This document shows positions 15,863 through 21,558 of a DNA stretch of 25,520 nt, one piece after another (the first letter of the stretch is position 1; every line of letters starts with the position of its first letter). The notes below the pieces were generated by a model. The model saw only the letters and a list, made by a program, of their open reading frames with translations. It had not been told where the DNA came from and made no database searches. Position numbers and translations under genes: made by a program. The DNA is from a virus (Duplodnaviria > Heunggongvirae > Uroviricota > Caudoviricetes): IMG/VR virus record IMGVR_UViG_2695420380_000007; one strand, given 5' to 3'.

Positions 15863-16303
15863 GACTCTCCAGCTCCTGTATCAGTCAGATAATTTCACGA
15901 CGCTTTCCTGCTGATTGCCATCATCGACAGTCAGACTCTTACGCAATCCCACCTCGTTGACTGCATATTCTCGCCGTCTCAGTGCGATTTTGACGGCCTT
16001 ACCTTTCACCCCATCAAATCAAAAGCCCTCACGTCTTTTTCACGCTCAGCGTGAGAAATACAGCCATTCTGTTGTATCTCTGCGACATCGTTCAGGGAAT
16101 GCTATTTACCCCCTGAAACGCGGGCTGTTCCCCCGTCACCTGCGCGCAGAAAAAACGCGTTTTTTTGTGCATGCACGGATCCTTGACGGATCCAGCCGCC
16201 ACGCGGGCCGGAAGGGCAAAAAGTCGTTCAAAAAAATTGTGCAAATTTGTGCACTATTGTGCATTTATAAAATCAACTAAAAAACACCTAGTGTGACTTA
16301 CCT
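15863..16303. other. Non-coding, palindrome-rich region between Q and the cargo operon; candidate cos/packaging region
   Basis: No credible ORF. Palindromes at 16040-16054, 16150-16165 and 16167-16176; CGGATCC direct repeat at 16176-16182 and 16187-16193; G-rich 19-mer 16122-16140. P2 cos lies next to Q (established knowledge). Confidence 0.4.
16237..16263. repeat. Three direct TTGTGCA repeats at exact 10-bp phasing
   Basis: TTGTGCA at 16237-16243, 16247-16253 and 16257-16263, immediately downstream of the stop of the last cargo gene. Confidence 0.6.
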
Positions 16304-17264: not shown

Positions 17265-17324
17265 CGTGTTTTCCTCGTGCGGGGCGACAGTGCACCCCGA
17301 TAAAATTAAAAGCCGTCAAATTCG

Positions 17325-17636
17325 TCATTCAGGAAATAATGCCCGGATATTCCCTGCTATCTGACTGGTTATCTGTGCGGTTGGTACTGGCTGTGGCACG
17401 GGGCGTTCTGTCCTGGTTTGTGTCACCGATAACGCCTCATCGTCAGCCCATGCAGCCAGTCGGTAAGCCTCTGCTGGATTCATTTTCAGAAGTGCCAGCC
17501 CGGCCAGAAAAGCCACGCGTTGGCCGCTTTTGCGGGCTTCTGGTGTAAGGCTGCCCAGCCAGGCGCATGCTTCGCTTTCGTTCTTGACGGCCGCAGGCTT
17601 CAGATAGAAACTTATCCGTCTGGTTGGTGTCGTCAT
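17325..17636 (-). CDS. parR: ParR-like centromere-binding protein (ribbon-helix-helix partition adaptor)
   Basis: ATG 17634-17636 preceded by AAGGAG, 4 nt after the parM stop; 103 aa; RRISFYLKP...EARKSGQRVAFLAGLAL resembles R1 ParR/StbB (from memory). The longer track ORF 17325-17771 overlaps parM. Confidence 0.65.
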   Translation of the reverse strand: MTTPTRRISFYLKPAAVKNESEACAWLGSLTPEARKSGQRVAFLAGLALLKMNPAEAYRLAAWADDEALSVTQTRTERPVPQPVPTAQITSQIAGNIRALFPE

Positions 17637-17640
17637 TGGT

Positions 17641-18600
17641 TTACTCCTTGTCCATTGCGTACAGCCCATTAACCAGAGCAAACTGTGGCACCCCGTCCGC
17701 GATGAAAGTCGCATTAACTCCGCAGGCTTCGCGGATAGCGGGTGCCACAATCTCCGCCCCTCCACCGACAACCATCACCCGCCCGTAACCCGAAAAACCC
17801 GCCAGCGCGCGGATCACGCGTTGTTTCAGTGTTTCTTCCTTTTCACGAATAACCGCCATCAGGCTGGCGTAATGCGCGTCATTGTGGATGTGCTGGCGCA
17901 GCCAGGCTTCATCATGGCGATGTTCGATAATGGTATTGGCGATGTGGTGACTGGTGCGCATACCGTTAGTGGCCATCACCGACAGTACGGCATCGGCCAT
18001 CAGAGAAACGCCTACGTGTGGATCGCAAAACACCTGGCTGATACCTGCCAGTTGCCCCTGAACCTTTGCCACATCCAGCGTGGTTCCGCCCAAATCCACA
18101 ATCAGCAGGGATTCAAACGGACTCATGTCAGCCAGTGCCTTAAAGCCAGCCGGAATGGATTCAGGCATAACCCGCACGTTACGGATAGTGAATGCTTCGC
18201 CGTTCTGGTACTCCACCGGGCGCATAACGTTCGCTTTTTTGCGGTTGATGTTGGCCATGTCCGGCTGTGCGTTTGTGTCGAAATACTCGCTCAGTGGCAG
18301 GGTGACAACCACATCCACCTCCTGTGGCGTGATGCCTGATTTGACCAGCGCGTGATGAATGGCAATGACATTTACATCGCTGTACTGGTATTGCGTGTCG
18401 GTTGTCTGGACAAAGCGATCGCTGACCGGATCAAAACCATAGCGCACGCCATCAAGCATGTAGTTCGCGGGCTGCATGCCACCGAACGGCGCAGACCATT
18501 CCGACTTGAAGCTGTTCGGGCTGATGGCGTTGCGGCGTTCGCCGTTCTCAGTCCATGCCAGCTTGATGTTGGTGGAGCCGTCGTCGATACAAATTTTCAT
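17641..18600 (-). CDS. parM: ParM/StbA actin-like segregation ATPase
   Basis: 319 aa, ATG 18598-18600 preceded by AAGGA; shared motifs with R1 ParM recalled from memory: IDDGSTNIKL, ISPNSFK, YSDVNV, NRKKAN, VMPESIPAG, LLIVDLGGTTLD, VMVVGGGAE. Confidence 0.85.
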   Translation of the reverse strand: MKICIDDGSTNIKLAWTENGERRNAISPNSFKSEWSAPFGGMQPANYMLDGVRYGFDPVSDRFVQTTDTQYQYSDVNVIAIHHALVKSGITPQEVDVVVTLPLSEYFDTNAQPDMANINRKKANVMRPVEYQNGEAFTIRNVRVMPESIPAGFKALADMSPFESLLIVDLGGTTLDVAKVQGQLAGISQVFCDPHVGVSLMADAVLSVMATNGMRTSHHIANTIIEHRHDEAWLRQHIHNDAHYASLMAVIREKEETLKQRVIRALAGFSGYGRVMVVGGGAEIVAPAIREACGVNATFIADGVPQFALVNGLYAMDKE

Positions 18601-18630
18601 GTCGCTTTTCCTTATGTTGATTAATTAATC

Positions 18631-18743
18631 GTTTACGGGATTCTGAAATCCCGTTTTTGCCTGTTTTGTGCGCGCTTCATATATCGCTGCGCGTTTTTTG
18701 CTCATTTACGGGATTCGTGAGTCCCGTTTCTGTCTGTTTTTTG
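18631..18743. promoter_or_regulatory. Pair of about 40-bp direct repeats, each with a hairpin-forming palindrome, flanking a candidate parM promoter
   Basis: tttacgggattctgaaatcccgttt (18632-18657) and tttacgggattcgtgagtcccgttt (18705-18729), each followed by a T-rich CTGTTTT tract. Between them, on the minus strand, candidate -35 TGAGCA and -10 TATATG with a 16-nt spacer. Confidence 0.5.
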
Positions 18744-21558
18744 TTTCCACTGGTCAGGCCACCCCGCAGCAGGTCTGCTTTGCGGCGGGCGCGTTCAGTG
18801 GTTTCACTGATTCTCTGTGCGTGCTCTGCGTCGCGGATGGCGCGCAGCATGTCAGAAAGCACGGTAACGGGTGTTTTCATGGTGTTCTGGTCCTGCTGAA
18901 GTGTGGATGCCAGGCGTGCGGCGGCTTCAGGGTCTGATGCCCCCAGCTGTGTCAGATAGCTGGCGACCGGGTTATGGCGGATCTCCGTGCTGCTTACGCC
19001 ATGATTACGGCTCAGGCGCTGCCAGAGCTGCGTGATTCGGCTGTCCGGGCGGGTATCCGGTTTGCGTACAATTTCAAATCCCTGCGGTGCAATGATGCTG
19101 CCGTCAACGTACAGACTGCCGCCCCGTAACAGGTGCTGCATCTGTTGTTCACCGATATGCAGGCCGAGAGATTCAGCAGACTCCCGCCATTCTTTAGCGA
19201 GTAATTCGTGGTTATCAGGCAAAGGCCGCTGCTGTTTGCGGCTCTGTGTCCAGCTCTGCATTTCATCACTGCTGTTTTTTGCCTGTTTGTCACGAAGCGA
19301 ACGCATCAGCGCCCGGCGTTCGTGCCGTTTCAGTGAGCGCATCCATTCATCCACATCAACGCCGTCAGGGAGCTGCGGCCACGGTGCTGGCCGTTCTTCC
19401 GGCTGTTCTGTCCCGTTGTTGTCCGTTTCCTGTACACGGGGACAGTTATTGCCACGAGTCCAAGGGGCGGCAGGGCCGCCCTGAAGGTCAAAACCATTTT
19501 CGCGGGCGCTGTCTTCCGCTTCCGGTTTGCGTCTTACCAGCTTCCAGTTATCCGGATGCGTGCACACACGGNNNNNNNNNNNNNNNNNNNNNNNNNNNNN
19601 NNNNNNNNNNNNNNNNNNNNNNNNNNNNNNNNNNNNNNNNNNNNNAAATCTGTACGCTCTGTTCGCCGTAATCGTTCAGCTCATCGGCGAGGTCGTAGGC
19701 GGTGCGAATCAGGTAGTCTTTGCGTGGAACAAGTACGCCGCCCTGTTTCTCTATGTAGGTGNNNNNNNNNNNNNNNNNNNNNNNNNNNNNNNNNNNNNNN
19801 NNNNNNNNNNNNNNNNNNNNNNNNNNNNNNNNNNNNNNNNNNNNNNNNNNNNNNNNNNNNNNNNNNNNNNNNNNNNNNNNNNNNNNNNNNNNNNNNNNNN
19901 NNNNNNNNNNNNNNNNNNNNNNNNNNNNNNNNNNNNNNNNNNNNNNNNNNNNNNNNNNNNNNNNNNNNNNNNNNNNNNNNNNNNNNNNNNNNNNNNNNNN
20001 NNNNNNNNNNNNNNNNNNNNNNNNNNNNNNNNTCGATGCCATCCACGGCGCGGCTGTCCAGGTTTTTCCCGATGTAGGTGGCGATGTAGCTGGTTGGCGT
20101 GCCTTTTGAGCCGTCTACATACTCCGCCTTAAAGCGCGGAGTTATGTCATCGCCCAGCTCGTGACGATCTTCCTGAATGGCAATATCGCGGGTGTGGGAC
20201 ACAATGGTGTCGATTTCTTCCGGATGAGCAAAGACCATCATATGCCAGTGCACGGTGCCGTCATGGTGAGGCTCCGCCGTGCGGATGCCATACCAGCGCA
20301 GGCCGTCGCGGTTCAGTTTTTTGCGGACCGTCGCAAAAAACGTGTTAACCAGGTAATCGCTGGAGTCGCGCATTGTGGCCCCGTTCCATTTGGGATTCGG
20401 ATGACCGTTCTCCGTTGTGGCGTGGTATTTTGACGGGCAGGTGACAGTCAGAAACACCGCTTTGTCGCCACGGGCTTCGGCCAGAAGTTCCAGCCCCTTC
20501 ATGGTGGCCATCATTTCTGCCTTACGGTGAACCGGGTTACTTACTCCCGCGTAATACACCGTCTCGAGATCAATCGTGAACCCGTCTTCATTTTCCAGCA
20601 TGAAACTTTTCAGGAAATCGCGTGTTTTCTCGCGCTGTGCGCGAAACTCGCTTAACGCGTCCTGGCTCAGATAGGGCGATGTTTTTCTGGAAACCAGACA
20701 GGCGGCGCGAAGTTGTTCTTCTCTCCACTCGCAACGTAACAGCCACAGTTTGCGTTTCCACCATTCCGCACAGGTCAGGCGAAGGATTGCGCCCGGCAGC
20801 AGTTCTGTGTCCGGTTCGTGCCTCCGGTCTTTGTCTGTTGTCAGTGCGTCATAATGCGGAGGCATGGCGTGTAAGTGTAACGCCATGCGGGCCAGCATCT
20901 GATACGCCTTCAGCGTTACATCCATGGTCAGCTCGCCATCAGTCGCGCCAAAACCATCGCAGAGTTTTTCGAAGGTGCTGCTGAACATCGCCGCCGTCAT
21001 GGTGGCCAGCGTCTGTATCTGGTGTTTGTTGAGTTGCGGCAGGTAAAGCAAATCGTCCAGGCGTTCACGTCCGGCAAGGGAGCGATAACCCGGTGTCAGC
21101 CAGTGTCCGTCAGTGCGATCCAGACGTTCGAATATTTTGCGCAGGGTTCCGCGTGCATAGCGTTCCGCCTGCCAGCTCTTTTTGCCTTTCCGGCGATCGG
21201 CTTCCTGTTTTTTGCGCAGGAAGGAGAGGTGGCGAATAAGCGGATCGCGCAGATAGGACGGCAGCAGGCGCAGCGAGGCCATGGCTTCATCCACCGCGCC
21301 GCGTGCCTGTTTTCTGGCGTCTCCTGCCAGTGTGATGGTTTTGTCCTGTTTTTCCTGTGCGTCCAGGCTTTTATTAATCAGGTTGCCCAGTGGCGTGGCG
21401 GAGAACGCCGCATCAGCCATTTCCTGGCGGCGCTCGTTCTCTGCCCGGTGGGCATCCAGCCAGGAGGAAAGCGCGGATTCAGGAGCGGGGATCCCCGTTC
21501 CTTCACGCCCCACTGCGTGGCGCGGTTGTTGCCAGTCCCTGATGTACTCTGCCGTCAT
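18677..21558 (-). CDS. A: Replication initiation endonuclease A (rolling-circle HUH type), interrupted by N-runs 19572-19645 and 19762-20032
   Basis: N-terminal ORF 19681-21558 (ATG 21556-21558) has the HUH motif HWHMMVF. Segment 19646-19761 encodes a clean peptide that joins the N-terminal frame if the 271-N run is removed. Assignment of ORF 18677-19567 as the C-terminus is inferred. Confidence 0.75.

Follow-up and report, generated by a model that had tools for sequence, protein, structure and literature searches.

In a P2-like prophage of E. coli, two direct repeats, each containing a palindrome, lie just upstream of the actin-like partition gene parM, one of them in the parM leader and the other inside the end of a replication gene, and the question raised by this locus is what such a pair of sites is for. 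The original prediction had left three readings side by side: a ParR-bound centromere flanking its own promoter, tandem intrinsic terminators on the plus strand, or a replication origin. ParMRC is the textbook actin-like plasmid spindle and, to our knowledge, its occurrence in integrating P2-like prophages has been annotated only and never examined. A search of a library of papers found no study of the P88-type par locus.

The window, which here means the whole 25,520-nucleotide stretch of DNA that was analysed, corresponds to a P88-like prophage (Xuanwuvirus, P2-like), and its region 17300-19700 is 98.4% identical to phage P88. Of 5426 complete E. coli genomes, 1437 carry a match to this prophage, at 1631 chromosomal and two plasmid places. 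On the minus strand, the order of the genes is gpA, parM and parR:

18677..21517, minus strand: gpA replication endonuclease (Pfam Phage_GPA, 4.4e-131), with a start coordinate inferred from relatives
17641..18600, minus strand: parM, actin-like segregation ATPase of 319 aa (Pfam StbA_N, 2.7e-82; ParM C-terminal domain, 1.3e-68)
17325..17636, minus strand: parR, predicted ribbon-helix-helix centromere-binding adaptor of 103 aa (Pfam PF10784, 5e-23; annotated as a CDS in relatives)

Both partition genes are intact and clearly belong to the R1/pB171 families, with ParM matching the structure of R1 ParM (1MWK) at E=8.5e-93. The ATG of parM is located at 18600 and the TGA of gpA at 18679-18677, on the same strand, which leaves a gap of 76 nt between the two genes. 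In two relatives (L001 and L002) gpA is a continuous CDS of ~940-947 aa, and in the window it appears as two ORFs of 625 and 296 aa in different frames. Of the eleven masked N runs of the window, two fall within gpA (19572-19645 and 19762-20032), and their lengths of 74 and 271 nt differ from those of the matching stretches in the relatives (34 and ~252 nt), so that the apparent split is not readable as a frameshift. A frameshifted gpA pseudogene was considered; the split is explained by the masked runs, and it speaks neither for nor against a frameshift.

The parMR pair is also found between gpA and the portal gene in P2-like prophages of Hafnia (L086), Plesiomonas (L089), Serratia (L090 and L095) and Enterobacter (L093), whose ParM proteins are 54-63% identical. 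By this shared gene order, the parMR module is ancestral to a clade of P2-like prophages. The cargo encoded downstream of parR depends on the lineage, and includes a HicAB toxin-antitoxin system in Serratia (L090, L095 5450-6084), a KAP NTPase in Enterobacter (L093 5411-6757) and assorted ORFs of no known function in the E. coli variants. It seems that the interval from parR to the portal gene serves as a hotspot where accessory or defence genes are inserted.

From the perspective of their anatomy, the repeats agree with the original description of paired, hairpin-containing direct repeats 73 nt apart with T-rich tracts, and the coordinates likewise place one copy in the parM leader and the other inside the 3' end of gpA. 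The repeat search recovered a single direct-repeat family of two 42-nt copies (18629-18670 and 18702-18743), which are 81% identical, start 73 nt apart and share the palindrome ACGGGATT-N4-AATCCCGT, followed in each case by a T-rich tract on the plus strand. The proximal palindrome (18635-18654, ACGGGATTCTGAAATCCCGT) forms eight perfect pairs around a 4-nt loop, and the distal one (18708-18727, ACGGGATTCGTGAGTCCCGT) forms eight pairs on the plus strand, including one G-T pair that corresponds to a C-A mismatch on the minus strand. On either strand, the palindromes have folding energies of ~-10 kcal/mol and z-scores between -2.4 and -3.6, and both are flagged by a terminator scan. Read in the direction of parM transcription, the elements of the region are the following:

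18702..18743, minus strand: distal 42-nt repeat, within the last ~22 codons of gpA (repeat search, motif match and alignment)
18726-18709, parM-sense strand: distal 18-bp dyad CGGGACTCACGAATCCCG, 126 nt upstream of the parM ATG
18654..18708, minus strand: spacer of 55 bp between the dyads, rich in A-tracts and containing the gpA stop codon (18679-18677)
18629..18670, minus strand: proximal 42-nt repeat, in the gpA-parM intergenic leader (repeat search, motif match and alignment)
18653-18636, parM-sense strand: proximal 18-bp dyad CGGGATTTCAGAATCCCG, 53 nt upstream of the parM ATG
18601..18635, minus strand: parM leader 3' of the proximal dyad, with the flank TAAACG, the block TTAATCAA (18624-18617) and the Shine-Dalgarno sequence AAGGA (18613-18609)

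There is no tandem iteron array in this region, which holds two 18-bp dyads, that is, four half-sites. The motif YGGG-N10-CCCR occurs at two places only in the 25.5-kb window, and these are the two repeats. Two matches anywhere in the window are not unusual by themselves, as 44 of 100 shuffles contain them; what exceeds chance is the pairing, the spacing and the position of the dyads, and not the number of motifs. Across 18601-18760, AA dinucleotides recur with a periodicity of 10-10.5 bp (p ~0.007-0.016, uncorrected for the six periods tested). Midway between the dyads, a short GC-rich inverted repeat with A-tract flanks (CGCGC at 18693-18689 and GCGCG at 18675-18671) spans the gpA stop codon, and it varies among haplotypes without obvious compensation. 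In the leader, the block TTAATCAA (18617-18624, minus strand), with ATAAGG (the Shine-Dalgarno sequence) a few bases later, is kept in the window and in the Hafnia (L086) and Plesiomonas (L089) loci; candidate roles for this block are those of a weak -10-like element, an additional protein-binding site or an enhancer of translation.

The comparison with these last two loci is the most informative one. Their ParM proteins are 62-63% identical to that of the window, and each of the three lineages carries exactly two YGGG-N10-CCCR dyads upstream of parM:

Window (E. coli): dyads at -126 and -53 from the parM ATG, spacing of 73 nt
Hafnia (L086): dyads at -129 and -56 from the parM ATG, spacing of 73 nt
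Plesiomonas (L089): dyads at -132 and -60 from the parM ATG, spacing of 72 nt

According to mononucleotide shuffles of the two independent upstream regions, those of Hafnia and Plesiomonas, two or more such motifs are expected within 260 nt with a frequency of no more than 4e-5, and none of 200,000 shuffles produced a pair with a spacing of 70-76 nt. In the rest of the 9-kb Hafnia and Plesiomonas loci, the motif is absent or present once. The consensus of 12 sites is YGGGWY-N4-RA-AWCCCR-nAArYG, in which the outer GGG and CCC with their neighbours and the right-hand flank are kept across lineages, whereas the inner stem and the A/T tract are not. The two Plesiomonas sites (CGGGACAACAAAAACCCG and CGGGACAACACTAACCCA) retain just three to four outer pairs around a 10-nt loop. 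The spacer between the dyads keeps its length (54-55 bp) but not its sequence.

The protein context upstream of parM differs among these loci. The C-termini of the gpA proteins of the window, Hafnia and Plesiomonas are unrelated, and in Hafnia the distal dyad is overlaid by an unrelated 167-aa ORF in another reading frame; that this ORF could be a detached gpA C-terminus was considered and ruled out. A mosaic junction is present in an IMG/VR locus (L044), where the par module is preceded by a different 3' part of gpA and the join coincides exactly with the left edge of the distal repeat. Since the dyads are kept while the upstream protein context differs, they are, judged from these alignments, a DNA-level feature that travels with parMR and not with gpA. 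No gene other than parMR was found to be constantly linked to parMR across the three lineages.

A search of other ParMR loci for the same repeat found the twin dyads in Hafnia and Plesiomonas, and the motif proved specific to these lineages in that none of 31 other ParM loci (ParM at most 53-58% identical) carries it in the 300 nt upstream. The dyad is likewise absent from P2 (26500-33593), and no further twin-dyad lineage emerged from viral contigs with Hafnia- or Plesiomonas-type ParM, from metagenome contigs or from the genome collection, which gave three near-identical loci. Instead of twin dyads, prophages of Serratia and Enterobacter (L090 3868-3950, L093 and L097) contain a single palindrome of ~66 bp, GGGAACGAWATAGAAAAAT...ATTTTTCTRTTTCGTTCCC, with GGGAAC...GTTCCC ends, a half-site similar to that of the twin dyads and the same CAAAAA tract before it. 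This palindrome probably represents a different parC architecture with a similar half-site. A second palindrome, TTTAAACGGC, follows it in these prophages.

Within the E. coli lineage, the dyad arms are no more conserved than their flanks (pi 0.03-0.06 versus 0.035-0.05), and about one locus in four has CCTG in place of CCCG at the proximal site. In one of 146 loci (L148, a metagenome contig of 171 kb), a precise 73-bp deletion between the direct repeats, ~150 nt upstream of parM, has left one hybrid repeat and a new C-terminal tail of gpA.

The variation of the stems allows hairpins to be distinguished from duplex sites. Among 71 distinct E. coli-lineage haplotypes, 16 variant base-pair types were recorded in the two stems, none of them compensatory. 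On the parM-sense strand, four of these 16 keep pairing via G-U and 12 break it, while on the plus strand nine keep pairing and seven break it. None of the 71 haplotypes shows a change in the central GG/CC pairs. Both copies may be altered alike and without compensation, as in L044 (CAGG, and not CGGG, in both) and L108 (CCCA in both), and in Plesiomonas a concerted change has given GGGAC/AACCC in both copies. A frequent haplotype, GCGGG...CCTGT, has two A-C mismatches in the plus-strand stem. The dyad region has no match in Rfam at E<=1. Taken together, the lack of compensatory change in the stems, the concerted copies and the lack of an Rfam match point to sequence-specific recognition of double-stranded DNA, and not to a hairpin of RNA or DNA under selection on one strand or the other.

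Regarding transcription, the original prediction had placed a candidate parM promoter between the repeats. A promoter scan of the window finds no sigma-70-like promoter between or near them on either strand, and the same scan finds no such site in Hafnia or Plesiomonas, while it recovers the R1 par promoter (TTGACT-16-TAAACT) as a positive control. Of the idea of a ParR-bound centromere flanking its own promoter, the promoter is thus not supported in any of the three lineages, and what stands is a pair of dyads conserved together with parMR. Inspection by eye gives a weak ATGAGC-16-TATATG in the spacer and, further downstream, hexamers like TATATT or ATTAAT; the former is not conserved in distant relatives, the latter are not conserved either, and all of them fail the scan. 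No Ogr/Delta late-promoter box was found near parM, and the dyads are unlike TGT-N12-ACA. The terminator scan detects no minus-strand terminator between gpA and parM. A terminator-like minus-strand hairpin with a T-run is located at 16254-16239 and probably ends a transcription unit comprising gpA, parMR and the accessory genes; close to it, at 16070-16087 on the plus strand, lies one of the only two TGT-N12-ACA (Ogr/Delta-type) boxes of the window. Because there is neither an embedded promoter nor a terminator between gpA and parM, parMR is probably transcribed by read-through from gpA, that is, as part of the early lytic operon.

Known parC sites are located immediately upstream of parM (PMC2241845, PMC5016525). 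This canonical position, together with a co-occurring invariant strand in ParR, the match of the ParR profile to 2JD3 and the similar half-site in Serratia and Enterobacter, makes ParR the parsimonious candidate for the protein that binds the dyads. The N-terminal MTTPTRRISFYLKPAAVK of ParR is nearly invariant among relatives, with variation only in residues 2-5 and 15-16. Its strand region TRR(I/V)SFYL is invariant in every twin-dyad lineage, even among E. coli prophages in which the C-terminal half of the protein is down to ~51% identity, and the dyads occur strictly with that parMR clade; the ParR proteins of Serratia and Enterobacter have a near-identical strand, NRKISFYL, yet a different site layout. 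The family profile of ParR matches pB171 ParR (2JD3) at E=1.4e-17, and the ParR sequence alone gives no match against the PDB with phmmer. An AlphaFold2 model of the monomer was of low confidence (pLDDT 57), with a disordered N-terminus, and was set aside. The C-terminal LFPE tail is conserved.

Other features of ParR concern its C-terminal half. Among E. coli prophages ParM is 98-99% identical, and ParR ranges from 93% down to ~51%, all the divergence being found in the C-terminal half (the linker and the ParM-binding tail). The tail reads NIRALFPE in the window, and NIQAFFPK or NINYFFPE in others, and residues 6-14 (RRISFYLKP) are invariant. This divergence is suggestive of diversifying selection or of exchanged modules, and incompatibility between prophages in the same cell may be the reason. 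The P88-type ParR, of 103 aa, is also without a segment of ~25-30 aa that is present in the ParRs of Hafnia, Plesiomonas, Serratia and plasmids and whose place in the alignment suggests that it corresponds to the helices that follow the ribbon-helix-helix core.

A resemblance to R1 is seen at the sites themselves, as the 12-mer AAACCCAAAAAC occurs both in R1 parC and in the right half-site of the Hafnia distal dyad, and the window sequence AATCCCGTAAAC matches 9 of its 12 positions; R1 parC carries phased iterons of the AAACCCAAAAC type (R1-type locus L101). This likeness of the right half-site and its flank to the R1 iteron is suggestive only and may be coincidental, since the two proteins, R1 ParR and the phage ParR, have different residues on the strand that faces the DNA. 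The core of the R1-type parC (L101 1113-1144) also includes a perfect 9-nt inverted repeat, AAATGGGGT-N14-ACCCCATTT, which overlaps the -10 element and recalls the GGG...CCC dyads.

Several other functions could be assigned to the repeats. That they are a P2-type origin with the gpA nick site was suggested by the P2 origin, which lies inside the 3' part of gene A, and hairpins are common at rolling-circle origins. The P2 nick site is annotated at P2 position 29892, inside gpA, and its codons align with residues ~677-694 of the P88-type gpA; the P2 nick context (GCCGCGCCTCGGAGTCCTGTCAATAACTGT) and the sequence at the equivalent codons of the window (GCCGCCCCTTGGACTCGTGGCAATAACTGT) are strikingly similar. 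This adds one element to the map of the locus:

19440..19480, minus strand: predicted origin, homologue of the P2 gpA nick site (GCCGCCCCTTGGACTCGTGGCAATAACTGT), with the nick expected near 19461

This homologue lies ~720-830 nt from the repeats, the repeats occupy a part of the gpA tail that is unrelated between lineages, and P2 lacks the dyads. An origin at 18631-18743 was rejected on this basis, and it is hardly conceivable that the repeats serve as one. A better case can be made for intrinsic terminators on the plus strand, acting against transcription antisense to parM either as the main function or as a second role specific to one lineage; for example, when the phage DNA is circular, they could keep transcription of the convergent terminase-portal late operon from reading through into gpA. 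Both sites pass the plus-strand scan, the proximal one with its eight pairs, 4-nt loop and TTTTT tail, the stems have energies of ~-10 kcal/mol, and no stronger plus-strand terminator was found by scan between the end of the portal gene (15812) and the repeats. This likeness holds in the E. coli lineage only, because the stems and the T-tracts are absent from the homologous sites of Hafnia and Plesiomonas, where the scan finds no terminator. In addition, no plus-strand gene or promoter-like site is present upstream, ~2.8 kb separate the sites from the point where the late operon ends, and the plus-strand stem is weakened by the two mismatches of the GCGGG...CCTGT haplotype and broken, without compensation, by the seven variants mentioned above. 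By this comparison, plus-strand termination is not the conserved function of the repeats, and termination in either of the two roles is given a low probability.

On the opposite strand, the palindromes could form RNA hairpins in the gpA-parM transcript and take part in its processing, its stability or translational coupling. The sense-strand folds of -10.7 and -9.0 kcal/mol (z of -3.6 and -3.2) and the location of the proximal hairpin in the parM 5' leader would fit such a role, which is nonetheless quite improbable given the 12 of 16 uncompensated variants that break sense pairing, the lack of an Rfam match and the few outer G-C pairs (three to four, with a 10-nt loop) that Plesiomonas and Hafnia retain. 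If the sites are recognised as duplex DNA, their ligand could instead be a host factor or a phage regulator other than ParR that controls gpA-parM read-through or expression, as a conserved duplex dyad does not by itself name its binder. The dyads, however, co-occur strictly with the parMR clade whose ParR carries TRR(I/V)SFYL, independently of the upstream gene, they do not match the Ogr/Delta box TGT-N12-ACA, and no other gene is constantly linked to parMR in the three lineages, so that an operator of this kind is regarded as unlikely, if still worth bearing in mind. Finally, the repeats could be a neutral local duplication with chance palindromes, in keeping with the loss of one copy in L148 and with arms whose conservation in the E. 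coli lineage does not measurably exceed that of the DNA around them. Nevertheless, the pair is found again, as an independent occurrence, at the same position and spacing in lineages whose surrounding DNA cannot be aligned, and an absence of function is thus very improbable.

The reading that we favour, with reasonable though far from complete confidence, is that the two repeats form a minimal cis-acting centromere of the parC type, belonging to a type II ParMRC system, which would be bound by ParR and is probably expressed by read-through of the early operon. This reading combines features computed directly (the anatomy, the conservation, the co-occurrence with parMR, the lack of hairpin covariation and the origin homologue elsewhere) with a binder, a stoichiometry, a ring geometry and a transcription route that we infer from them. 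In the proposed mechanism, the core of each repeat would be the 18-bp dyad YGGGWY-N6-RWCCCR with the conserved flank nAArYG, acting as a duplex-DNA site and not as a hairpin. Each dyad would bind two ribbon-helix-helix ParR dimers, its GGG and CCC cores being ~13 bp apart, and at a separation of 73 bp, or seven helical turns, the two dyads would face the same side of a helix that is phased by A-tracts and probably curved. A stretch of ~115 bp (18629-18743) could in this way be organised into a ParR ring or a U-shaped complex, which would capture or cap the growing ends of ParM filaments, as at R1 parC. If parMR is expressed with the early lytic operon, the machine would be made only in the extrachromosomal phase.

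In the ParR centromeres known so far, 4-10 or more iterons are arrayed in tandem, as opposed to the two dyads found here, and an embedded, ParR-autoregulated promoter of the R1 type is not universal among parC sites. The phage site shares with R1 parC its place upstream of parM-parR, a homologous ParM, a ParR of the PF10784 family, ParR sites (putative in the phage) arranged in two blocks around a spacer, A-tract-rich and probably curved DNA, and a right half-site with flank that resembles the AAACCCAAAAAC iteron; R1 parC has been reported as curved (PMC2241845). They differ in that R1 has two sets of five tandem 11-bp direct iterons on either side of a 39-bp core that holds a strong promoter (PMC2241845; Dam & Gerdes 1994), whereas the phage site consists of two 18-bp dyads 73 bp apart, has no detectable promoter, carries its distal site in the end of a replication gene and resides in an integrating phage. 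The ParR proteins of pSK41 and pB171 (2Q2K and 2JD3) are ribbon-helix-helix proteins that form dimers of dimers, with ~12 dimers and ~120 bp per superhelical turn (PMC5016525). The 115-bp span of the phage repeats is close to one such turn, although those centromeres are made of contiguous tandem repeats of 10 or 20 bp and a ring geometry at the phage site is only conjectured.

Other mobile elements offer further parallels. In the ICEs of the SXT/R391 group, the centromere srpC lies in the leader of srpM and is made up of just four short repeats, both direct and inverted, which shows that such a number can suffice, and the genes are switched on by the activator of the element (PMC4489591). As in the phage, srpMRC is a type II actin-type module of a normally integrated element, with a centromere of few repeats and an expression coupled to activation of the element (putatively, in the phage, through its early operon) and not to a classical, autoregulated par promoter; the two differ in that SrpR is without recognisable similarity to ParR, while the phage ParR is a bona fide PF10784 member, and the repeat sequences are unrelated. 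The AlpAC/alpS system of the Corynebacterium prophage CGP3 is similarly prophage-encoded and consists of an actin-like filament and an adaptor that binds repeats beside the operon, and it acts on the excised, replicating CGP3 phage DNA (PMC4446434, PMC5539076). In that case, however, the adaptor gene comes first, the site is formed by 24 short TTAAnnG repeats, and the proteins are unrelated to the R1-family ParM and ParR. As for P2 itself, which belongs to the same phage family and has a homologous gpA, its origin also lies inside the gpA coding sequence, but the homologue in the window is at ~19461 and not at the repeats.

The kind of element, a ParMRC centromere, is therefore already known. 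What would be new in its details is the two-dyad architecture with a fixed spacing of 72-73 bp, the absence of an embedded promoter, the overlap with the coding end of a replication gene, and its home in an integrating P2-like phage carried by about a quarter of complete E. coli genomes. For annotation, the dyad site is now separated from the predicted gpA origin (~19461), and the DNA of the putative centromere doubles as the coding sequence for the last ~22 codons of gpA. A small site of two dyads, with a defined consensus and a spacing of 73 bp, asks how few ParR sites are needed to nucleate a segrosome. It also asks what a partition machine does for an integrating phage, the candidates being the positioning of replicating genomes, the stability of the excised form and incompatibility between related prophages. 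A tentative answer, which we hold to be possible but rather doubtful, is that this promoter-less minimal centromere in the 3' end of a replication gene belongs to a machine whose ParM is made only when the early lytic operon fires, and which positions or segregates excised, replicating phage genomes and does not serve plasmid-like maintenance. If this is true, few cytoskeletal systems that move DNA would be more widespread in E. coli, as about one in four complete genomes carries it.
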